DNA of 62,496 nt, filler included, from Globobulimina sp. (lineage: Eukaryota): assembly GCA_003354225.1 (NCBI GenBank). It is 12 parts of 12 records of this genome, joined end to end, with 100 filler letters (N's around TTAATTAATTAA, not from the genome) between each part and the next. Parts side by side here need not be neighbours in the genome. Positions count along the whole stretch, not along the records: positions 41,759 to 46,870 come from PIVH01000719.1; 11 more parts are not named here. The stretch is one strand, 5' to 3'. A program made the translations under genes and the position numbers. Shown piece by piece: positions 1,786 through 46,870 of this stretch. The notes below the pieces were generated by a model. It did not search any database. It was not told the DNA's origin and was given only the letters and a program-made list of their open reading frames with translations. The number at the start of each line of letters is the position of its first letter. The stretch's first letter is position 1.

Positions 1786-4700
1786 ATGTTTACGATGCAG
1801 TATTTCTTATTGACGTTAATTGTAATTACAATCGCGACTAAAGATTCCTTGATGGACCCAGAGAAATACGTAAAAATATACTCTCAATGCGACCCAACAC
1901 CAGATAGCACCATTCATAAAAACAATGGATTATATTATATTAAACCCTCAGTCGACGGCATGATAATTCCAGTGATATGTTCCAACGGCTATACAATGAT
2001 TGATTTATCATTAGACACAAATTTAAAATCAATCCCAACCTACTTATCCTCATATGATTACAGTCGCGTTTCCATCGATTATATTATCCCCAATTTAGAT
2101 GATACCGCCACATTTCGTGAATGGTGGTTACCTTCTGATAAAAATACAAAATTCCGCATTGCAAAAGATTGCAAATCTTGTCTCGATTCAAGAGATCCAT
2201 TGCTATCAAACAATGTCGTATATTATACGGATTCGTCTCTATTTTGCTACACATCATACATTGGCAACAATGCCTGTTTGGACGCAGTCAACGCATATTC
2301 CTGCAACATATGCGATGTCGGCATCTTTACGCAAACTGCAAATGATATAAACAACGACCAATATTGGCGTCAATGCAGTGCCTTACAAGCCTCTCCTGAC
2401 ACTCCCTCGTGGCATGAACCACAAATGAGAGTGAATCACCATTTGATATATCGACCAGTAATGAGCTTACAACGTAGTGCCTGTAGCTGCTATCAACAAG
2501 AAAGCAAAAACAAAAACGAAATATTAAAAGAATATATCATCGCAAAGAGTGAGTTGCCGCTTGTAACATATGGCACAAATAATATTAAAGCTGGTGCAGA
2601 GCTCATGGAGAATATCCAATATATCGATGATAGCATACAATTTCAGGATATTCATGTCGCGGATGACGAGTCTGCAGACAATGATATGTTAAACAAGTGT
2701 GCTGAAAATAAAATATATTTGACTCAAAATGATTTCTTAACCGGTACTTATCGCATCCGCGACTGTGGAGAATATATATTTACTCAGGATATTATCTGCA
2801 ATTTCAATGCCCCGACACATGAACAAGAATTAGATTTGGATTTCAGTCCCAATTCAATTGACAACGAAGCGAATGAATTATATTGGTTTCCAACACGCGA
2901 ACAAGCCTCAAAAGATAATTCCTATCCGGGTTTGTATGATTTTATTGGCTCGTTTTCGTTGGGCTTTTTTAGTGGGATCACGGTCGAAACTGATGATGTA
3001 ATTATTAATTTAAACGGCTTTACCTTTTCAATGCATAAAAAGTTTTATGTACAGCAACGTTTTTTTAGTTTAATTGAAATGGCGTCGAAAATGTTTGAAC
3101 CGTTACAAGGACCGACTGCGTGGGGGCTATATAACGAATATTATGCAAAGAATTTAGAAATCAAAGGACCGGGTACTTTAGCGACCTCATCGCATCATGC
3201 AATCCATGGCAATTTGGCTCAAAATGTCTATATTCATGACTTAAATATTAAAAATTTTGATGTGGCAGGAATTTCTTGCAATGGATGTTCATTTTTAACC
3301 ATTGAAAATGTAGTGGTTGGGCCTCAAAACAAAAATATACCCACTTTAGGTCGCTATACGCATGCAAGGGCATTCTTACCTCGCTTGAAACATCTAAACG
3401 ATAAATTTGGCGATGAATTTATTACATTTTATAACCGAAATCCAATACAAATATCACAATTATGTTCCCGAATGGTGCAAGAAATGGATATGATTTATTT
3501 TAATTATATAAATAACAAACAATATGACGATATTAGTAATTTGGAATGGATTGCAGCCAAGAAAATATTCCTGAATCCGAGCGGTTGGATGGATGGTGGC
3601 AGTTCGTATGGAATAACCATCAATGGGCGCGGCGCCGCTGTGGTTGGCATTGGTGTACGTACCGACTCCGTGAATAATATTATTTTGCGCAATGTAGAAA
3701 TATTTGGTATTTACAACGAAGCAAAGGAGAAAATAAAGTATCAGCTACCTGCTGCCGACGAGAAAAATAATGGCCAAGAGGCCACGACTCGGGGCATATT
3801 ATTTGATGCCATCGATTGGATTGCAGTCAGTGATCAGATTGAGGACCGAATGAAGAGCCAATATGTTGGTGATTGTTATACCGACATTCAATTTGCGGCA
3901 GCAAAGTTTGTTGATTCTTGGTACTTTCGTAATTCTTATTTTGTTGGACAAAGCAACATTGATTATGTGTTCAAAGGGAATAATCTGGAAACTGACTATC
4001 CATTTTTAAAGATATTGCCACAGCGAAATGAAAACGATTATTACGAGGATGTCATTACACGGTCATGCGGCACTGACATACAACTCCATTCCTCCAAAGG
4101 TGCCATTGGTTTAATGATTAATGGAGCGCAAGATTCAATAATCGATGATGTTTTTATTCATGATATTTATAATTTTGCTGCGTTGGGTTCAACCATTTGT
4201 GGACCGTACGATGTATTGCATATTACCTTTGAAGATATTGATATTCAAAAAGGATACACAGCGACGAGAGCACATGGTTTGGTGATTGATTTTGCGAGCG
4301 GTGAATTTACGAATATTCATATTGATAATATTCAATCTAAAAATGGCGAAGCAAATGGTTTTACAATTTATAAAGGATCGGATGTGCAATTATTAAATAT
4401 TAATGTAGAGAATGTCTATGCTGGCACAGAATTAACAGAGGAGGATGTAAATCAATTAGTTTTACCAAATTATGTACCGAGAGCATGTTCTATTGATATT
4501 CATGAAAATGCACAAGTTGAATATGTAACAGGTACGATGTCCGACAATTTAGTATTTGGAAATATTGATGGATTTATTGTTTGTGATCCATTTAATGATG
4601 AAAGTGATAGTAATGATGGAGGAATATTGAGCTCAAATACAGTTTTATTTGGATTGGTAATGAGTATATTTGTTTTTTTGATGATAATTATTTATTGGAA

Positions 4701-6085: not shown

Positions 6086-6714
6086 TTTTTGATATTAATA
6101 TCTTTGTAATATATAACCATATACATTTTTTATGGTTTATAGTGTATATATTGCATTGTATCTTTTTTACACTAATTTATTTTTGTTTTAATCCATTATT
6201 TTTGACTTACTTCTTTAATGATTTTGTTATTTTTAATCTTATCTTCTTTTTTAATGCATTTGCCATTCTGATTATGGTTTTTATGGCATGTTTGTTTTTG
6301 ATTTTGTTTTTTCTAAAGTTTGTCCTTTGGTTTTTCAATATTTCTCTTTTTATTCTCTTTTCTAGTTTTTTTAGTCACATAATTTTAGATTTCCTTTTTT
6401 CATTATTTATAATCTTTATTTCTAAATTTCCTTTTTGCCATTTGATGTTTCATGCCAATATTCTTGATTTTTGTTATTTGCATTTGGTTTTGAGATACTT
6501 TCTTTATTTATTTTCTTTGATTACTTATCAAAATTCTTTACATTTCAAACAATCAGAAACTCGATCACATGTTTTAGTTATTTTTATCCTATGCTTCATT
6601 CTCGATTTATGCCTTATTTCCGATCTCGCAGTTTCTATTTATTTATGCTATATATTGGTGTTATTATGCTGTCATTTGTTTGTTTATCTGTATGGTATCC
6701 AATTTATTAAATGA
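6082..6714 (+). CDS. Putative hydrophobic multi-TM ORF between ORF1 and ORF2
   Basis: 210 stop-free codons rich in F/I/L; ATGA overlap at both ends (6082-6085 and 6711-6714). Could also be a T-rich spacer that is open by chance. Confidence 0.45.
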   Translation: MIFDINIFVIYNHIHFLWFIVYILHCIFFTLIYFCFNPLFLTYFFNDFVIFNLIFFFNAFAILIMVFMACLFLILFFLKFVLWFFNISLFILFSSFFSHIILDFLFSLFIIFISKFPFCHLMFHANILDFCYLHLVLRYFLYLFSLITYQNSLHFKQSETRSHVLVIFILCFILDLCLISDLAVSIYLCYILVLLCCHLFVYLYGIQFIK

Positions 6715-9700
6715 TGATGCAAAATAATCATAGAAAAGGTACATTTCCTCATATAATTGATAGCGACAAGATATTGGATCATATTGATTATAATTACTAT
6801 AATCATTCTTTGTCATTTATGTCTCTTAATATTAATGGGTTACTACACGCAGATTTAGGCCGAATTAATGATAAAAAGCTGTGTGTTTTACAAAGTATCA
6901 TTGATGAATTGGAGCCTACAATCATTGCATTGCAGGAGGTTTGCATTCATTATAAGTCAGATTTAGAACCACCACATATCGATGGATATTTTTGTAGCAT
7001 TAATGATGTCCCGTTATATGATATGCATTTGAAAAATGTTGTGTACATTAAAAATAATATGCGGGAATATGTAGATGTTGTCAGTCTTAATGATATGGAC
7101 AGAAAGCATATCATTCGTGATTTGGTAGATTTGTCAGCTTTGACACATGAAAATGGGCATTATTCTACGTGGTTTATCATACATCCCTCGCCCGTGTCAA
7201 ATGTAACTGAGTCTGTTTTGTTTGGATCTTATTATCGTTCGCCGAATCGATCTCTTTTGGTTTCGGACTTACAAATATTTAAATATACTCTTAGTTATAT
7301 TCTGCATCGATATAAACAAAGAGGATGGGATGGAAATTCATTGGTATATACAAATAAAATTATTCGTACCTTTATCTTTTGTGGGGATTTTAATATTCAT
7401 AATGAGCTATATTCGAAGATAAATCATCAACAATATAATAAAACAGACAGAATGGAATTTAAATGGTTGTCGCAAATTATTGAAGCAAAACATGTTTCTA
7501 TTGTCAATACACAGCGTATACCGACACATAACAAAGGTAATGTCCTTGATTTGCATTTGGTTTCTGATAAATTGATGAAGCATTGCAATAATTATGTGAT
7601 AAATTGTATAAATGATGATGATCCTATGCAACATATCTCTGATCATTATATTCTATTTTCGATCATCAATTTGGATGCTTGTCAGCATAAACGGTTTGAT
7701 TCGGTGAATTTGCATCAGTTTTCTGTAAATAATGTGAATTATCGTTTTAATAATCCGAAGCAACTGCATTTGTATAAGCTTCGTACAATTCGGGCTCTAC
7801 GGCACTTGGAACAACGTATTGATGCTTTGAATATCACAAATTATACAGACATTGATAAAATATCGCATGCATTCTATTGTTTGATCCACAAAAATGCGAC
7901 CAAATATATTGGCAAAATCAAGAAACGGACTTATCGATATCGTCAGCTTTGGTGCAATGATCATATAATTAATTATAGCAATCATGTGGCAAAAATCAAA
8001 CGTGATTGGTTGCAATGCGCAGATTTGTCATTGAAAGGCGAGTTGCGGGCTATATATAAAAAAGATAGAAACACATTGAAAAATATGTGTACACAAGCAA
8101 AGAAATATAAATTACGGCAAAATATACATTTAACTGTTAATGGTGGCCGAGATATACATAAATCGATGCGATACCTACGTAAAATTGGTAAAGTTACGAC
8201 ACGTAAACATCGTATTCCTTATCTAATACACAAAGATACGAGCACTGGATTGACGAATTTTGTTCATAATAATCATGAGAAGGCCAATCTATTTGCGCTC
8301 AAATTTTGTCATCGTGATCTATCTCATATTCGTTATAATCCATTGAATCGGATACAATTTAAGAACATTCCGCTGATGGATACTATTTATGATTGTAATA
8401 AGGTAATACATGATATCTCTCATAGATTGCCAGCAAATGGCATAAATAATCCCCGACTCATTCGTAATGATTATAGACATAAACGAGCCACAAATACTAG
8501 TTCGATATATTTAGTTCGATATATTTTGCGAATTATGAATAATAAATGCAATCACGGTGTTGGTATACACCTGCAATTGTTACTATATTTGGATCCGTAT
8601 ATTATACAATTTTTGGTGAAGTATTTAAATATCTTCTTTACGTTTGAATATTTGCCGAGGATACATAAAATAACATATATTTCGGCCATTTCTAAGCCTA
8701 AACGAGACCATCATTTTGTTGATAACTATCGGGAGATATCACTTAATGGATCAATCAAAAAGTTGTATGAATTATGTTTATTGTATAAGGGACTTGAATT
8801 TGTTATTGACTGTGATGTAATTCATCCAAATAACACAACCAATATGAAGGGAAAGTCGACGCGGGATATCGTTCTGTTAATGATAAATGATATTAAGCAG
8901 CAATGGAATCGACAGATTCCAACATATGCCATATTTTCTGACATCGCACAAGATTTTCCTTCGGTGAGATATGATATTTTGATCCAGCGTTTGTATCAAT
9001 ATTATGGCTTTCCGATGAAATATGTTCGGATAATGTATGATTTGTTGATAAATTGTTGGTGTGCAGTCGTGATAAATGGCATTCGATCTCAGTGGATGCT
9101 GCAACTCATTGGGTTGGGTCAGGGCCGCCCATTGAGTCCTTTTTTGAATATGCTTTATTTGGACCCGTTATACTATACGATTCCGAAATATCTGCCGTTG
9201 AAAATATATATATACGTCGATGACTTGGTAATGTGGACTGTAATGAAGGCGCTCTTTATGTATGATATTGAATATGGACTACAATATGCCATCGATAATG
9301 TTATTAATTGGTTGAGTCTGAATGGGATGAAATTATCTGAAAGAAAGACTAAATATATTGTCTTTTATACAAAACATATGGATAAGAAATATGTAGTTCC
9401 GCGACCACACATTCGATTGTATAAAATGGTGAAAATCAAACCTGAACAGTATGTTAAATATGTGGGATATTATCTAACTTATAATTTATCGCCGCGTATA
9501 CAAATTAATCACATGGTACAGCGAATGTATTTGGATTGTAAGAGTATACAAACTACGGCCAAATATATTGTTGGCTTCCCAATGAAGAAGCTCTTCCACT
9601 ATTTTTCGTCAGTTATACTATCTAAGATTGAGTATCCAGTGATTTTGTTTACGTGTATTAATAATAAAAATGACTTTTCTCCGTTGAAAAAGATGTATTA

Positions 9701-10346
9701 TCAAACTATAAAACTGTTATTTGGCGCAACCCGAACTATTCCGCATGATATCTTAATCATTTTGACTCCTTTTACACATTTTGAGGTGTTCATTGATATC
9801 AAATTGCTTCGTAATTGGGTGAATTTGCTATATTTACATGATCGTAATGTGCTATATACATTGATCAGAGATCATTGGTTACCACAATGGAATTCATATT
9901 TGTTATCGCCGCTAAATCGCCGTACACAGAAATCAAAATTGCGTTATATGCAGACGTACGACCGAAAGAATCCATTTTTCCAACTGTTTCTACTTGCGAT
10001 TAAGTATAATGTGTTGGATTCGATAAATTATAATTGGCGATTTGCGATGAATGAGTATGGCACAAAAATTAAATACATTCCATCCTTTGTGATTAAGCCA
10101 AAACATATACAATTTGTGTGTGGAATGTATACAGAAACACAACAAATTAATAACTGTCATTGCACTGTTTTTGGCTTTACCGATGGTTCAATCATTAAGA
10201 AATATGGCGGTGTTGGCATGTTGTTGGAAATACATCGCATTCACTGCCATTTTACACTGTGTTCCGCCGATATTGCTCTCCCTTATAACAAGCAACCAAA
10301 TGACATTGATATTGATACTTTAACTGATATGAAATTACAGTATGAT
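6711..10346 (+). CDS. LINE ORF2: AP endonuclease + reverse transcriptase + start of RNase H (3'-truncated)
   Basis: APE motifs SLNINGL, IALQEV, YYRSP, GDFNIH, LDLHLVS, SDHY. RT motifs YREISL, FSDIAQDFPSV, GLGQGRPLSP, YVDD, KYVG. RNase H-type FTDGS...GVG near the contig end. Confidence 0.95.
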
Positions 10347-13093: not shown

Positions 13094-15391
13094 TTAAATC
13101 GGAATATCTCCATCACCATCATCACCATCACCATCATCATCACCACCAACATCATCTAAATGTCCTTCGTCCTCTGCCTTTGTGCTAAATGTGTTCCTTT
13201 TTCTCGTTTTATCATTATCATCTTGTTTATCCTGATCACTTTCTTCTTTTTCCTCTTCTTTTTGTTCCAGATCCAGATCCAAATCATCCAATGCAGAGAA
13301 CCTAATCAATCTATCTTTGCTCTTAATTGTGTGCAGTTTTACGTTGTTTGCATCCTCGTCTCTATATTGTTTAAACATAACTCTCCGGACATCTTTTGCC
13401 TTATCAATGAGTCTAGCAAAATATCCAGTAATTAAGGTAGAAACAATTAAACAAAAAATAAAAGTCACCCATAACAGCCATACATTTGCCCGTCTCATTT
13501 GGTCTGAGCCGGCAGTAATTAAATTTATTGTAAATTTAATAGCATTGGTAGTGCCCATACTGCCGGCAATGCCCAAACCAAATACTGTTACATACACTAA
13601 TTCAAATACTGCTGTATCCAATATCATTGGCACAAAATCAGAATCGCCTTCAATATGTAACTCTTGCAGCGGATCATAAAATCTTTCAAATGTATCTGAA
13701 CATATACAGTAAAAGTACATCAATACAATTTAAAATAAAATAAAATAAAATAGATATTTACATACCAAACATTGCTTGTGCCACACCTGACAATTTCCGA
13801 AAAAATAAAATCCATAATCAATACAAATTGTATACAGTGCGGAATTTCCGTTCATATTCATATTTGGTGCACAAATTGTTATATTGCGATGATGGATTGT
13901 ATTTGTTGGAAATTAAATATTTATTGCACCTTTATCTGCAATCTTTTTTTTTAATCCCCATCTCTCCACATAATGAGTACCAATCACTGATAATGATATA
14001 CCACCAATCGCCACAATCCAATATAATAAACATTGTGCACCTATTAATACCTCACCATTCGCTAAACTCTGCAACGATGCCATTAATGCATCAAACAATG
14101 CCATTCCAACCACAAATCTCAAGTTGTCATATAATACGTCATTCACAATTATTCGAGACTTATCGGTTAAAAATAGCTGTTGTTCTGCTGGTGTTGCATT
14201 CTTTGGATACAAAATATGAAATTGCTCACTAAATGAAAATGCCACAGAGACAAACAAAGCAATGGTTATAAAATATCCCCATTGCTGAGCCACTAAGTTT
14301 GCATTGTTACGTCCATAAATTGCGAGAATAAATGTATTTATGCAATCTCTCCATGACCAGGCAATGGCGAACTTGATCACAGTTTGTGTCAATTTGATGG
14401 ATCTTTTGACAAATGCAAATTTTAATAACCGTTGTTTTTCTTCACTTTGAGTGTTGAATCGGTCATCAAATTCTTGCAAATATGTTTGTATTTCATTTTC
14501 TTTGTGCTCGTATACACCGCCAATACGAATAACTACATAGATGCCAAACGCAGTCATAAAGAGCGCATAAAAAAAATATGCAGTGGCAGTGGCTGAGGCA
14601 GAAGTGATAATTAACGCAAATGTCGCCTTTGCTGCATCACGCCATGCGATAGACACTGTATTTGATAGTGTGTCGACAAATAAATCTTCAAATTTTTCAA
14701 CCAATTCATTTGCTTCTATCTCTACAAAATCATAGATTTTTTTCGCAGAGGATTCTTGTTTCTTTTTTTCTAATTCTTGAATCGCATCGCGATCGCCACC
14801 TATTATTTTCCTGCATGGTTTCAGAGTGTATTTATATTTATATTGGTATACAGTACATATATCTGATATGAATGTTAACTTTTCTTTGCAATTAAGATTT
14901 AATTCACGTTTCATTTCAGTTAAATCTTCAAAAGCTCTGGGGATAACAGCTAAAATTATACCAATAATAAATATAATAAAAAAATAAATCCACGCATTAT
15001 TAGCTTTGTCATATTTGTCACCAACATTTCTGAACTCGATTTTTAGAGTATTTGTCATGGCGAGTGCTAGCAATGTCGCATTAACCCAACTTAAATTATT
15101 TACAATTTTATCAACAGTCGCATCTAAACATTGTTCTGTCATTAATTTTTCCTCAGCTTGTTTATCTTTGATTGATTCGACTAATGCTTCTTCGCAATCT
15201 GAATCTGTTAACATTGATTGCATTCTGTCATATTCTTTTTGAGGGCTTTTTTTACAGCAATCACCACATTTATTGTGCCATATTGTAAATACTGGCAAGT
15301 CTTTTGCTTTTTGCGATAACCTTCTTGGACGAGAAGACTCTTTTTCATCTGAATTTTCTTCATTAAAGCTTAGTCCTTGATACTGTGACAT
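13094..15391 (-). CDS. Polytopic membrane protein of unknown function with about 5 internal helical-hairpin repeats; 3 exons
   Basis: Exons 15391-13930, 13786-13766 (21-nt microexon) and 13695-13094; GT-AG introns 13787-13929 and 13696-13765 keep the frame (DK G VAQAMF D TFER); acidic C-terminal tail. Confidence 0.7.
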
Positions 15392-16022
15392 TGTTTCATT
15401 TATCTTAATTCATAAATGGTGAGTGTAACTGATTCGTAGAAGAAAATTTGGATCATAGGGATTTCTTAAGAAGAAGTCATATTTGGACAGATATCTACTT
15501 GATCCTCTTATACATTCCATAATTTCCATTCAATTATTAATTTGTTTTGGATTTGCCCACCCAAGACNNNNNNNNNNNNNNNNNNNNNNNNNNNNNNNNN
15601 NNNNNNNNNNNTTAATTAATTAANNNNNNNNNNNNNNNNNNNNNNNNNNNNNNNNNNNNNNNNNNNNCTATTTGCTTCATGTTCACCCCATCAAGCGATA
15701 ATCATCAGTTTTATCATTGGATGCTATAAACTGATTTTTAACCGAAATATCTGTTGGACTAATTTCCAAGTTTTTTTCAGTAAGGTTTCTCCTTAAAACA
15801 TCATGATGTTCAGTTTCTTTATACTTATATTTACCATAAGCGTAGGATTTGATAGGTTAGGATTGGCATTCTTGGATAATATATATATATTCTCAAAAAT
15901 AATATATATATTCATATATGATCCCTTGACAGGTCAACCATTTATTTATATATGATCGAAGGTAATATATATATTAGTGGCTGGTATATGTATATCTTAT
16001 CGGGAACACTACTGTATATTTT

Positions 16023-41758: not shown

Positions 41759-41854
41759 GATGAATCCAATGATGAATCCAATGATGAATCCAATGATGAA
41801 TCCAATGATGAATCCAATGATGAATCCAATGATGAATCCAGTGATGAATCCAGT
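41759..41854 (+). repeat. 8 x 12-bp GATGAATCCA(A/G)T tandem repeat encoding (DESN/DESS)n
   Basis: Read directly from the sequence; in frame with the helicase ORF with no intervening stop. Confidence 0.95.
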
Positions 41855-43771
41855 GAGAAAATATTTTTTGATGCTGCATCAAGAAGCCGATTATCCAGAA
41901 AACGACGATTCGACGATGTTGATGATGGTTTGACTGGTAGTCGAAAAAAAAGACGATTGTCAGAAACAACGCATTTATCACAGTCATTGTCACAATTATT
42001 ATCAGCTAATCACAATGTTTATGAATCGTCACAATTATTATCACTTGAAGAAAATAAACAAAATGAAGAAAATGATGATGAATCGTCACAATTAGTATCA
42101 CTTGAAGAAAAGGAAGAAAATGAAGGAACTATATGGGACCAGACTTATTTAGGTATCGATAAAGCGGATTTTGTGAGCCATGCGAATCTGATCCCTGAAT
42201 TAACTTATAAATCGTTAATATTGGAAGAATTGCAAGATATTAATGATCGTGATTTGGCATTGGATGAAGACAATAATAATTACGACGCAGTAAAACAATG
42301 GGTCGAATGTTTTCTGTGCAGAATCGTCACACCGCAAATGTATTACAATTTACATACAATGAAACAATGCAATGCACAATTTATTTTAGCAGTGGTGAAA
42401 TATAAAGTTGTTAAAAATACCAAGAAAGATGGAATGAGTGTCAAGTATGTTCCTTTTTATCCCAGATGGGCGACCGATGCAAATATAAAATCATTTGATT
42501 CAGTTGCATGGATTCCGCCTCCATGTCATTTATTTATTGATCGAAGGAATGGTAAAGGATTAGTATTAAATAAATTTGATTTTACGTCATATTATCAGTT
42601 TGTCAGTCGTCCATTACGAAATTCACTACGTGCGCATCATCTGATTGATTTTTTTAGCAACGGTATTTGCAGAGGAAAGGAGAATGTAATCCATTTTTTT
42701 TGTTGTTACTTATTTCATTTGATACATTATCCTGTCGTTAATCCGCAGTTATTCATCATCTTATACTCGTTTGCACGTGGAACTGGAAAGAATGCATTCT
42801 GTTATTTAATCAAAGCATTTATGGGTAATGTGTATTTTCGAGAGATCAGTGGATATCAATTTTTTCAGAATACAACGTTTACGGGAGAAACAGAATATAT
42901 TTTAACTGTCATAAATGAATCACAACTGGTCACTAAACCACAGATAGAAAAATTAAAAGCAAAAATTACCAATGAAACAGCATTAGTAAATAAGAAATAT
43001 GAGCAGTCATCGTTACAAATTAATGTCGAAAGGTGTATTATGTGTATCAACACCAAAAATTGTGGTTTAACTGGTAGAAGATTTGCACCTTTTCATGTAT
43101 CAGAGGATAGAGCGAGAGAGAAAGCCCATTTTAATATGATATATACTGGAATAAGAGATCCTGATGCGGTGAGACAGTGTTGGGAATGGATTCGTAGTAA
43201 AGTAACATTGCAGGAACGAGATGAAATGAAAAAAAATCAGTTTAATTTCGAACATTTATTTCAATCAATCCAAGGTAATGAGTATCGTGAAGAGAATGAA
43301 TATGTAAATGCAGGAGTAATAATTAAATTCTTTACATACTTATTATTATTTGTGTTTAATATTAAGAAGGAAAGGGATTTTCGATTAGCAGCAGCTCGAC
43401 CTAAAGCAAACATTACACATATTGTTCTTTTTGATAGATCGGATATTAGGACTATGTTTAGCAGTTTCTATGTTCAAATTGACGGAGGTCAAGCATCGGA
43501 CGTATTTTCAACATATGGAGCATTTCGCATGGCATTGGAAGATATTCAACATTCTGGATTCAGTTTCTTTGCTGATCATAGACAAGCATCGACTAGATAT
43601 TGGTGTTATAATTTTGTAGTATTGTTAAAATATATGAAGACACAATATCCAAGTTTAATGAAACAATGTTTAAAAAAAAGAAGGAGAATTGATATAGTCA
43701 TTCCAAAAACAGTTATTTTTCAACCTTATGAAAAATGTACAAAAACATTACAAAGAGAGTTTCTATGTTAA
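41759..43771 (+). CDS. D5/NrS-1-like (DUF5906-type) superfamily 3 helicase; 5'-truncated, with acidic repetitive N-terminus
   Basis: Frame open from the contig edge. RWATDANIKSFDSVAWIPPP; ICRGKENVIHFFCCYLFHLIHYP; Walker A ARGTGKN; Walker B LTVINE; EKLKAKIT..VNKKY; motif C IMCIN; Arg finger GRRF. Confidence 0.8.
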   Translation, partial: DESNDESNDESNDESNDESNDESNDESSDESSEKIFFDAASRSRLSRKRRFDDVDDGLTGSRKKRRLSETTHLSQSLSQLLSANHNVYESSQLLSLEENKQNEENDDESSQLVSLEEKEENEGTIWDQTYLGIDKADFVSHANLIPELTYKSLILEELQDINDRDLALDEDNNNYDAVKQWVECFLCRIVTPQMYYNLHTMKQCNAQFILAVVKYKVVKNTKKDGMSVKYVPFYPRWATDANIKSFDSVAWIPPPCHLFIDRRNGKGLVLNKFDFTSYYQFVSRPLRNSLRAHHLIDFFSNGICRGKENVIHFFCCYLFHLIHYPVVNPQLFIILYSFARGTGKNAFCYLIKAFMGNVYFREISGYQFFQNTTFTGETEYILTVINESQLVTKPQIEKLKAKITNETALVNKKYEQSSLQINVERCIMCINTKNCGLTGRRFAPFHVSEDRAREKAHFNMIYTGIRDPDAVRQCWEWIRSKVTLQERDEMKKNQFNFEHLFQSIQGNEYREENEYVNAGVIIKFFTYLLLFVFNIKKERDFRLAAARPKANITHIVLFDRSDIRTMFSSFYVQIDGGQASDVFSTYGAFRMALEDIQHSGFSFFADHRQASTRYWCYNFVVLLKYMKTQYPSLMKQCLKKRRRIDIVIPKTVIFQPYEKCTKTLQREFLC

Positions 43772-43833
43772 TTAAAATTCAATTATTTAAATTCTGAGTG
43801 TTTATTTAAAAACATTAAAATCTGCAAAACATT

Positions 43834-45000
43834 ATGTTCGATCTCTTGAAATTTAAAGAGACTGCTGTTCTCTTGTTGCAACATCTTAATAAACGGGAGA
43901 CTTTTGAACCTACGACACGCACGTTACAGACACTGATCGATGCAGCCAAATTACACTACAAAAAATCCAATCGACGATGTATTTATGCTGGACTTTTCAT
44001 TAAATTCGTTAAATCTTTACAAAGTGAATATCAATGTTTACCGGATCGTAATACCGATGAAGTATGCTCTATGCTTATAACAACTATTAACAATGCACCA
44101 AATCAACCAGCTTTGAAAAAACGATTATTTAATCTGAACGATAGCCAAAATACATTAAAATGTGGAATCAAAATGTCACCAATTACGACAAGCATGTCTC
44201 CAATGGAGACAATCAATATGTCGCCAATAAAGGTTGGTTGTATAGATATTAAGAAAATGCCACGTTTGGAAAGCGGCGAAGGTCCCTCGTTATTGGATCT
44301 TACAACTCCAACACCATCAGTATCCCCGATCAACTCCATCCCATCCAAATCAATCAGAATCAAAAACGAAAAATATAGTGAATCATTCGAAGGGAGAATA
44401 AGATCGATAGTTGATCATTCAAACAACAGTTTAAACAATAAAACTCAAACACAAAATAAACAGATATATTCAGCTCATACAGCGACACCAAAACCAATCA
44501 ATACAAACAATAATAATTATTCGCTCCGGAAAGGTCGGTATGTCGGTCAAGATAATTTCATGCCGTACGAAGCAAAAAAGGAAACAAGTATTGATGTAAC
44601 ACATTTTAATTTGAAAGAAACAAGAAATGACAATACAGTGGCAAGTCCAGTGGCAAGTCCATTGATATTAAATATATCAAATACAATGACAACGCACAAC
44701 TCCAAAGCGATGAAGACAACGATGAAAATATCAAATATTGATGAAGACAACGATGAAGACAACGAGCTGCTTTATGATTGGTTAAGCGATTTGGATTTAA
44801 CCACTTTGAATGTGAATGTAACCGGAAAGGAAAAAAAGAAGAAAAAAAGAAAAAGGGAAAAAAAGAAAAAGGAAAAAAAGAAAAAGGAAAAAAAAAGGAA
44901 AAAAAGAAACAAGAAACGAAAACTCAACCAAGTATATGATAGCGACGGACAAACAACAGTTAAAACGGAAAATAAACGAAAAAAACAAAAATTTCATTAA
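43834..45000 (+). CDS. Hypothetical nuclear protein: helical N-terminus, SP/TP-rich linker, poly-Lys NLS-like tail
   Basis: 388-aa intronless ATG ORF 62 nt downstream of the helicase. Confidence 0.7.
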   Translation: MFDLLKFKETAVLLLQHLNKRETFEPTTRTLQTLIDAAKLHYKKSNRRCIYAGLFIKFVKSLQSEYQCLPDRNTDEVCSMLITTINNAPNQPALKKRLFNLNDSQNTLKCGIKMSPITTSMSPMETINMSPIKVGCIDIKKMPRLESGEGPSLLDLTTPTPSVSPINSIPSKSIRIKNEKYSESFEGRIRSIVDHSNNSLNNKTQTQNKQIYSAHTATPKPINTNNNNYSLRKGRYVGQDNFMPYEAKKETSIDVTHFNLKETRNDNTVASPVASPLILNISNTMTTHNSKAMKTTMKISNIDEDNDEDNELLYDWLSDLDLTTLNVNVTGKEKKKKKRKREKKKKEKKKKEKKRKKRNKKRKLNQVYDSDGQTTVKTENKRKKQKFH

Positions 45001-45150
45001 CATTGTATTGCGTAACGTAAACATGGAATGGGCACATATTTAAATTTTGTTATTGTAATAATATTTTAACAGACTTGAGTCACTGATTTAACAGACTTGA
45101 CTTCAAAAAATTGAAAAAAACTCTCTCTATTTAACAATCCTTGAAAGACA

Positions 45151-46315
45151 ATGCAACACAAAACCTATGAATTAAATATATCTGATGATGAATATCATCA
45201 GTATAAACATGTAAAACCACGATGCAATAAATATCAAACAGTAAGGTCGAAGAGGTCGAGGTCGAGGGGAGAGAATAATCGAGATCGGAGGGGAGAGAAT
45301 AATCGAGATCGGAGGGGAGAGAATAATCGAGGTCGAGATAATTATTACAATCGAGATCGGATGGGAGAGAATAATCGAGGTCGGAGGGGAGAGAATGATA
45401 ATTATTATAATCGAAGTCGAGATCGAGGTCGGATGCGAGAGAATAATCGCATTCGCGATACCGGACCGCGGTCAGAGTACTCAGGATCGAGGCGGGAAAG
45501 AAATCTGGATTCAAATCCGTATTTGGCATCGCAGTCGAGGTCGAGGTCGAGGTAGCAGGGGAAAAAATCCGGTGTAGTGGCATCACCACCGCATAATACG
45601 AATAATACAATGGGTTTAGAATCACCACCGCATACACCATCACCATCACTGTCATCGAATAATAATTCAACGGCATTACCACCGCATATACCGATCCCTA
45701 CAATAGATTTAACAACACCATCACCACAGCACAGTAATATAAATAATAATTCGCTGATTGATTTGTCATCACCACCACGTAAAATGCGAAGCGCCGGTTT
45801 GTGTCTGTGTTGTACATATATCTGTGTTCTGTACTTGTGATTTGAATGTGTGGTTTTGTATCTTGTATTGTATCTATTTAGTACACCATTTGTTTTGTTT
45901 GATGTTTACCGCCGACGGTACACCAGCTATGGATGAAGATAAAGAGGCATATGGTGGTGGTTTGAGTGCATTTAAACAACAAGACATCGAGGACTTAGCA
46001 TTTGATAATGATCCTACAAACGAGGATATTCAATGGCATCTATTCGAGAATCATTGCGATGCGAAGAAGAGACTAATAAAAGCAGCCAATGATCTGCGCG
46101 ATACCAATGAGCATAGGGGAAACTTAAAACGGCGTTATGATGCGAATTTTTACAAATTAAAAATTTTAGAGAAGGCGATTGAAACACTACCTCTTCCGAT
46201 GCAAGCAAAAATCAAGAATGCTGTGGAAATGGTGGAGAAGGAAATGGTGGAGAAGGAAATGGTGGAGAAGGAAAAGAAGGAAAAGAAGAAATGTAAGAAA
46301 AGAAGTGATTGTTAA
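45151..46315 (+). CDS. Putative split gene: RS/RGENN-repeat ORF (45151-45555), in-frame Pro-rich continuation after one TAG, intron 45797-45881, coiled-coil exon ending at 46315
   Basis: 45151 and 45577 are in the same frame; the GT..TTTAG intron joins ..RSA V HHLF.. in phase 1 with ORF 45758-46315. Confidence 0.55.
45265..45450 (+). repeat. 24-bp degenerate repeat AGGGGAGAGAATAATCGAGATCGG encoding RGENNRDR
   Basis: Copies at 45265, 45289 and 45313 plus diverged downstream copies. Confidence 0.85.
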
Positions 46316-46589
46316 TGACTGGAAGTACGTAATTATAATCCATATTGTTTTTTTTTTTTTTTGAATTTGAAAATGGATCTATTTAATATTGCTTGTATTC
46401 ATAGAAAAATTAAACCTTGTTTGTCATCATAGAGGGTACCACGGAAAACTATTAATTTAACACAAGGGTTTATCAAAATAAGTGACTTTTTAGGTTTAAT
46501 TTGAAAAAAAATAAACATCAATGTCATATTGAAAAAACATCAATGTCATATTTAATTAATTTACAAAGTACAAACAACGGTCATATTAA

Positions 46590-46870
46590 TTATTTCAAAA
46601 AAAAAAGGCGATTGTGGTTTGGTATTGGTAAGTGGCGGTCACTGTCACACACGTGAATGATATTCGTTTGTATTGTTATTCTATCTTTTTTTAATTGCAC
46701 TTCTGTGTGCTTTATAATTCCTGGCAGTTGGCACATTGTTGTCGATGGATGTATTTCAAACGCGCGAACTAGATTAAATTGACCAGTGTCTCTATATATG
46801 TACCAGAATGAGTATGCTGCCAATAGTTGATTTTTTTTATCGAATTCAATTCCTTTATAGGGTGCTGGCT
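46590..46870 (-). CDS. 3' end of a hypothetical protein running off the contig
   Basis: Frame open from the contig edge (PAPYKGIEFDKKNQLLAAYSFW...) to TAA at 46590. Confidence 0.45.

Follow-up and report, generated by a model that had tools for sequence, protein, structure and literature searches.

The contig C719 (PIVH01000719.1) of the protist Globobulimina sp. (assembly GCA_003354225.1) encodes a superfamily 3 (SF3) helicase next to several orphan open reading frames (ORFs), and it raises the question to what kind of genetic element these genes belong and whether this element resides in the genome of the host. C719 occupies positions 41759-46870 of the window, i.e. the whole 62.5-kb stretch of DNA analysed here, in which 12 unrelated contigs of ~5.1 kb each are joined by 100-base spacers. 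An original prediction made from the sequence had described the contig as a virus- or mobile-element-like cassette built on a D5/NrS-1-type SF3 helicase. Our analysis suggests, with a probability of roughly 50%, that C719 is the middle of an element related to Polinton-like viruses (PLVs) and virophages in a protist nuclear genome, with a TVpol-linker-SF3 replicase at its core and with capsid and integrase genes that lie farther out or were lost.

The helicase encoded on C719 is an SF3 helicase of the NrS-1/DUF5906 type. Its frame runs without interruption from the start of the contig (41759) to 43771 and includes the motifs GTGKN (42779), VINE (42908), KLKAKIT (42950), INTK (~43040) and GRRF (43070-43084), among which we presume the labels Walker B and motif C from general SF3 motifs. 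The ORF matched Pfam DUF5906 barely above the cut-off (E 3.7e-6), its best ESM Atlas matches are annotated as DUF5906 (score 0.97-0.98), and a profile of its relatives matched the PDB entries 6k9c/6k9e at E 4e-10. A single-sequence PDB search with the helicase gave no match (elsewhere one weak phage match was obtained), and a word-based protein search returned nothing for the helicase and nothing for another ORF of the element, ORF254. The Walker A of NrS-1 as given in PMC7102993 is the Walker A of the 6k9c/6k9e chain. Catalytic Lys453, hairpin Lys525 and finger Arg556 of NrS-1 align, counted by hand, to columns kept in the C719 helicase, with Arg556 and Lys525 falling on the profile columns RRF and NKK, both of which are retained. 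Furthermore, G172, G174, K175, E218 and N262 are invariant in 13 of 13 aligned helicase sequences. The profile searches and the aligned NrS-1 residues bear out both the SF3 motif set (Walker A/B, motif C, arginine finger) of the original prediction and its NrS-1-type assignment. The predicted 57-bp duplication ahead of the helicase is likewise present, in a linker with an Asp+Glu content of 21-27%. The ORF is intronless as described, but it is 5′-incomplete, and the repeat read as (DESN)8 does have eight units of 12 bp, of which not all encode DESN (Table 1).

The relatives of the helicase led to the missing part of the protein. An HMMER scan of 1.84 billion representative proteins gave 338 helicase matches, nine of them at E <=1e-30, and several top relatives are 1,114-1,491 amino acids (aa) long with an N-terminal domain that carries family-A polymerase motifs. 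Four of the seven closest relatives are two-domain proteins of this length, while the other three (568-728 aa) have no match to the TV-Pol domain. With the N-terminus of one such relative as query, we found contig C2192 in the genome (E 2e-48). The ORF on this contig comprises 552 aa from its Met and leaves the contig inside the DESN repeat, and the end of C2192 overlaps the start of C719 exactly by 20, 32, 44 or 56 nt, all in register. Judged from these sequences, the two ORFs most likely form one TVpol-linker-SF3 replicase of ~1,200 aa. The statement that no primase is visible holds for C719 alone but not overall, since the assembly probably broke at the 12-bp repeat and left the polymerase half on another contig.

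The first 300 residues of the C2192 ORF have a predicted fold (pLDDT 87.7) for which all 46 PDB structures among the matches listed are family-A polymerases, and the best named viral structure matches include the replicases of Qinghai Lake virophage and Zamilon (TM 0.74-0.76). In this model, the N-terminal domain is a TV-Pol, a minimal family-A polymerase fold, which together with the virophage matches supports the viral or mobile-element origin proposed earlier. The hairpin Arg (R78) and the two palm Asp (D107 and D251) are invariant in seven of seven aligned TV-Pol sequences. For TV-Pol, primase and polymerase activity have been predicted and the lack of a nuclease partner noted (PMC2579912). 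On short contigs of the genome we also observed further ORFs of other clades, namely four TV-Pol-like ones and three DUF5906 helicase fragments.

The same genome holds a second family of this replicase. Contig C1272 encodes an AlkB-type ORF, a TV-Pol (38% identity) and a linker, and contig C9889 a helicase (44% identity); the two overlap by 139 bp at 96%. C9889 in turn overlaps contig C40121 by 119 bp at 100%, and C40121 encodes a homolog of ORF2, the gene following the helicase on C719 (pairwise E 3e-8), which adjoins the family-2 helicase in inverted orientation and faces it. ORF2 therefore appears to travel with the helicase. A single-copy gene in conserved host synteny, which had been named as the case that would speak against a mobile element, is not what we found: there are two families, and they share a neighbour gene. 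The helicases of both families differ at 197/166/265 first/second/third codon positions over 492 codons, and third-position differences exceed those at first and second positions in the TV-Pol as well as in the helicase domain, a pattern that fits selection on the protein. The AlkB-type 2OG-Fe(II) oxygenase ORF (C1272 3-986, Pfam E 2e-7) lies just upstream of the TV-Pol, and the linker contains a candidate in-frame GT-AG intron of 79 nt (2158-2236) followed by a RING/PHD-like Cys cluster (2222-3361 region).

Of the 150 helicase relatives listed, 48 are hit by the TV-Pol profile, and among the 96 with a length of at least 650 aa the number is 46. We placed the helicases in a quickly built tree (SH-aLRT only, midpoint root, without named references) that comprises 56 helicase cores; 12 sequences without a clean Walker A window and relative P0014, which ends before the ATPase, were left out. 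The C719 and C9889 helicases fall in a clade of 14 sequences with an SH-aLRT of 98. With the midpoint root, compact forms of 777-835 aa, one with and two without TV-Pol, branch first, and the long-linker forms are nested within the clade at weaker support. None of the 10 relative clusters that we looked up has a name, and scans of viral-contig and metagenome-contig collections returned no relative of the element. The contigs on which relatives P0002-P0008, P0014 and P0154 are encoded measure 3.8-23.7 kb.

The element is likely integrated (endogenous) in the host genome. Decayed copies exist on C23415 (87%, with stops) and C33704 (85%), the GC content of C719 (34%) lies within that of the other window contigs (30-44%), candidate introns occur, and there are joints to host-like DNA, which together suggest integration. 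Regarding the joints, C1272 continues into a repeat for which, with 40 of 61 candidates scored, 30 other contigs gave a match, one of them with a MYND-finger gene, and on C22162 (2-928) a piece of RPA49, the RNA polymerase I A49 subunit, continues in frame into a homolog of ORF254 (29.5% identity), a joint that represents either a host-gene insertion or a chimera. On C23415 we observed that the decayed copy, which represents the region upstream of the TV-Pol, ends at the same base as C2192; the adjoining stretch looks LINE-endonuclease-like by eye and has no Pfam match.

C719 and C10841 overlap by 163 bp at 99% identity and are connected by a contig of sequencing run X1, so that C2192, C719 and C10841 amount to ~10.5 kb with the replicase and about eight orphan ORFs, for which Pfam and PHROGs gave no significant match naming a function. 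A32-like ATPases had four matches in the genome and tyrosine recombinases (YR) 87, none of them on the element contigs; all four ATPase loci and the 30 of 87 YR loci that we retrieved have no ORF in common with the element (rve was not searched for). These 30 YR loci appear DIRS-like or bacterial by eye. A search for the double-jelly-roll (DJR) capsid family matched nowhere and is uninformative. Two other contigs of the genome resemble known elements: C1, a 23.7-kb AT-rich (22-25% GC) PLV-like contig with an A32 ATPase and a putative capsid ORF for which no second match was found, and C1143, a Polinton-like contig with an ATPase and with ORFs that by eye resemble integrase, capsid and protease genes. 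Both were rejected as parts of the element, as they share no ORF with it and are separate elements. Membership in the Polintons/Mavericks was dismissed because the replicase is family A and not pPolB. We likewise discarded a KDZ (CxC4) transposon as carrier, the sole link being an ORF4-like ORF on C7081, of which a near-identical copy on C27332 compares to ORF4 at a pairwise E of 0.11. KDZ/CxC4-type transposases themselves show a large protist expansion in this genome, with at least 14 matches, the longest of ~1,000 aa and some seemingly interrupted by introns.

Several observations weigh against the reading as an integrated PLV/virophage-related element with a joined replicase. The junction of C2192 and C719 is not covered by any read or contig, the repeat recurs in other X1 contigs whose flanks differ (loose ends at 41770 and 41804), and only one family-1 helicase copy, i.e. 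of the C719 family, is assembled. In C2192, HxxxK stands in place of RxxxK, the defining motif of TV-Pol, with K151 invariant; the Arg of this motif is absent in most long-linker relatives and intact in P0012 and C23652. The C2192 domain is therefore a variant of the TV-Pol fold and not a textbook member. In Pol I, this Arg has a nucleotide-binding role. By analogy, its loss may lower nucleotide binding and leave a reduced or primase-only polymerase. ORF3 shares one frame with the following 76-aa ORF and ends at a single in-frame stop between them, so the C719 copy may be decaying. No capsid, A32 ATPase, protease or integrase gene is linked within the ~10.5 kb, of which both ends are open, although this blank is weak, given that the putative capsid ORF of C1 escaped Pfam and PHROGs as well. 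The outer contigs share no terminal repeats, as far as their sequence extends short of the ends; described insertions generally measure 15-30 kb (PMC10120064). Finally, amplification may have produced the joints to host DNA as chimeras, a worry that arises from the strong fragmentation of the assembly (70 Mb in 48,370 contigs) and from a microhomology joint in X1.

Among the alternatives, a self-replicating element that is capsid-less by design ranks highest, even if we regard it as rather unlikely. It would consist of the TVpol-SF3 replicase and a few accessory genes and exist as an episome or integrase-free insertion, a PolA counterpart of the transpovirons. Three contigs of ~10.5 kb without a recognised structural gene are in line with it, a simple repeat that host-like contigs also carry terminates the right contig, and the recognisable C1 and C1143 contribute no ORF to the element. 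Next to the family-2 replicase lie an AlkB-type gene and the ORF2 homolog, the contigs of relatives P0002, P0003, P0004, P0007 and P0008 measure 5.8-12.8 kb, and PolA/AEP (archaeo-eukaryotic primase) replicases have been suggested to move alone (10.64898/2026.10.13.758929). However, the left end is open in mid-gene and no element ends are defined, PLVs measure 14-40 kb (PMC12220804), and the capsid searches were insensitive, as the example of C1 shows. In a tentative extension that we consider similarly doubtful, there would be a whole family of capsid-less, integrase-less nuclear replicons built on a TV-Pol-SF3 enzyme with a giant linker, resident long enough to have acquired linkers with nuclear localisation signal (NLS)-like clusters, introns and captured AlkB- and RING-like genes. 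Less probable still is an unintegrated virus or plasmid of the cell, its prey or the surroundings that was sequenced along with the host. The tight gene packing and the intronless replicase would suit such an origin, as would the bacterial contigs and the 23.7-kb PLV-like contig in the assembly, but decayed copies, host-like GC, candidate introns and the joints that connect it to host repeats and to part of a host gene contradict it. The X1 depth over the element, flat at 5-10 (without a single-copy control), also argues against it. Runs X2 and X3 of the same sample gave next to no cover, which, without a host control, is no proof of absence.

The remaining two explanations have little in their favour. 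A virus-derived polymerase-helicase that was domesticated and serves the host, with unrelated orphans alongside, would account for the long NLS-bearing linker, the candidate intron and RING/PHD-like insert of family 2 and the altered RxxxK; it is very improbable in view of two divergent families with truncated and decayed copies, of a conserved neighbour (ORF2) that is an orphan with flipped orientation, and of the compact forms within the clade, which include members with and without TV-Pol. Least credible of all is that the two halves stem from different loci and that C719 encodes a stand-alone helicase. The join does rest on a tandem repeat found elsewhere in X1, and helicase-only relatives exist. 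Against this, both ORFs are cut off by a contig end within the same repeat, in matching register, our searches gave one family-1 TV-Pol and one family-1 helicase, and family 2 and P0014 keep the order TV-Pol, basic cluster, LSQSLSQ, helicase.

SF3 helicases typically act as ATP-driven hexameric rings. For the PLV/virophage-related element, we propose by analogy with NrS-1 and other SF3 enzymes that the helicase would form such a ring and unwind the element DNA, while the tethered TV-Pol would prime and extend without a proofreading domain. The long acidic linker most likely tethers the polymerase flexibly and would let it reach both strands, and the linker with its NLS-like clusters most likely brings the replicase into the nucleus. 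The neighbouring orphan ORFs would then encode basic, low-complexity accessory proteins, with capsid and integrase genes beyond the assembled part, or lost.

Table 1. Features of contig C719 in window coordinates.
Position	Strand	Feature	Basis or remark
41759-43771	+	3′ part of replicase, 670 aa, 5′-open, probable TVpol-linker-SF3	ORF; two-domain relatives in one chain
41759-41854	+	12-bp tandem repeat, DESN x6 + DESS x2	Probable assembly break; C2192 ends in identical repeat
41897-41995	+	Two basic clusters (putatively NLS-like), then LSQSLSQ	LSQSLSQ also in P0014 and family-2 C1272
42014-42127	+	57-bp tandem duplication in acidic linker	88% identity
42779-43084	+	SF3 ATPase core: Walker A, Walker B, B′, motif C, arginine finger	Motif, Pfam and PDB-profile evidence
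43834-45000	+	ORF2, 388 aa: ~100-aa N-terminal domain, low-complexity body, Lys-rich tail	
45151-45555	+	ORF3, 134 aa, Arg-Ser/Arg-Asp (RS/RD)-rich, 24-bp repeats	X1 contig: one base and a 2-base gap differ
45610-45840	+	Pro-rich 76-aa ORF, probable exon ahead of candidate intron	
45797-45926	+	Candidate GT-AG intron, 130 nt	GTTTGT..CCAG, 47% T
45902-46315	+	ORF4, 137 aa, acidic then coiled-coil-like, Lys-rich end	Weak matches only elsewhere
46590-46870	-	3′ end of orphan ORF (Arg-rich N-terminus)	ORF begins on C10841; 163-bp overlap, 99%
46695-46870	.	Start of 573-nt segment skipped by one X1 contig at TTTAA microhomology	X1 contig comparison

The ORFs downstream of the helicase are co-oriented and closely packed as originally predicted (gaps of 62, 150 and 61 nt, where measured), and Pfam gave no significant match for ORF2, ORF3, the 76-aa ORF or ORF4. 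The uniform orientation does not extend over the whole contig, in whose last ~280 bp lies the 3′ end of an ORF on the opposite strand, with the remainder on C10841; no paralog of this ORF was found. Host-type splicing in one gene, at the candidate intron, is plausible from its sequence, although 25 of 60 possible GT-AG pairs in range would keep the frame. Identical 16 bases follow the stop of the helicase (43775-43790) and of ORF254 (L014:3105-3120; E 0.005 in a small comparison), possibly as a common 3′ signal. The segment skipped in X1 (46695-46870 plus L021:164-560) comprises 573 nt, or 191 codons, in frame with the opposite-strand ORF, and part of it reaches a depth of ~120, compared with 5-10 elsewhere, with a different end that we sought in the assembly and did not find. 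Its ends, on reading, do not fit a GT-AG intron, which we rejected; skip and depth peak may reflect a chimera, a variant copy or a small amplified piece. The other window contigs encode eukaryotic families such as TBC/FYVE, ATAD3, Ras, calponin homology and PPR proteins. One carries a LINE ORF2 with endonuclease and reverse transcriptase (6711-10346, 1,212 open codons) and another a 498-codon frame (13913-15409) with a match to DUF5654 (E 4e-6).

The nearest known counterparts of such a replicase are those of virophages, in which PolA-SF3 fusions have been reported (PMC3671162), and of PLVs, in which TVpol-SF3 is common (PMC12220804; 10.64898/2026.10.13.758929). The domain order of the joined replicase would be the one found in Sputnik V13, Zamilon, OLV25, YSLV1 and Qinghai Lake virophage (PMC2579912, PMC3671162), the PolA fold is shared with C2192 at a TM of up to 0.80 together with the hairpin Arg and two palm Asp, and neither replicase has an exonuclease domain before the polymerase. 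In contrast to two named virophage proteins of 778-839 aa, the replicase of the element would measure ~1,200 aa, its long acidic linker carries repeats and basic clusters, and HxxxK replaces RxxxK; unlike in virophages, no capsid or recombinase gene was seen beside it. PLVs with a PolA-SF3 replicase and YR share the replicase type and insertions in protist genomes (PMC12220804; PMC10120064; 10.64898/2026.10.13.758929), and N-terminal domains are swapped in both PLVs and the helicase clade of the element. However, no major capsid protein, ATPase, YR or terminal repeats are linked to the element, its GC is like that of the host, and it has candidate spliceosomal introns, whereas PMC10120064 treats such elements as intron-free. 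Phage NrS-1 (6K9C/6K9E, DUF5906; PMC7102993) has a helicase of the same subfamily, with the Walker A Lys, hairpin Lys and arginine finger aligned, but a bacterial host and an N-terminal AEP Prim/Pol where the element has TV-Pol. Transpovirons and the proposed free-moving PolA/AEP replicases (10.64898/2026.10.13.758929) resemble the element as replication modules without recognised capsid genes, yet transpovirons are defined there by pPolB and a DDE transposase, neither of which is linked in the element. The literature that we searched (mostly open-access, and preprints without their supplements) contained no long-linker, possibly spliced TVpol-SF3 and no such elements in foraminifera. The replicase of the element appears to be a known kind of enzyme, TVpol-SF3, in a long-linker form that would be new.

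Surveys such as PMC10120064 detect such elements by capsid genes with intron-free gene calling. With a replicase half again as long, repeats that break assemblies, possible splicing and no capsid nearby, the lineage described here would be overlooked by capsid-based surveys. The HxxxK change poses the testable question whether this TV-Pol is a full polymerase, a primase only or inactive. If a capsid module is present, the element would represent a new PLV lineage from a little-sampled host; if there is none, it would provide a direct case of a PolA replicase being a mobile element in its own right, which has so far only been proposed.

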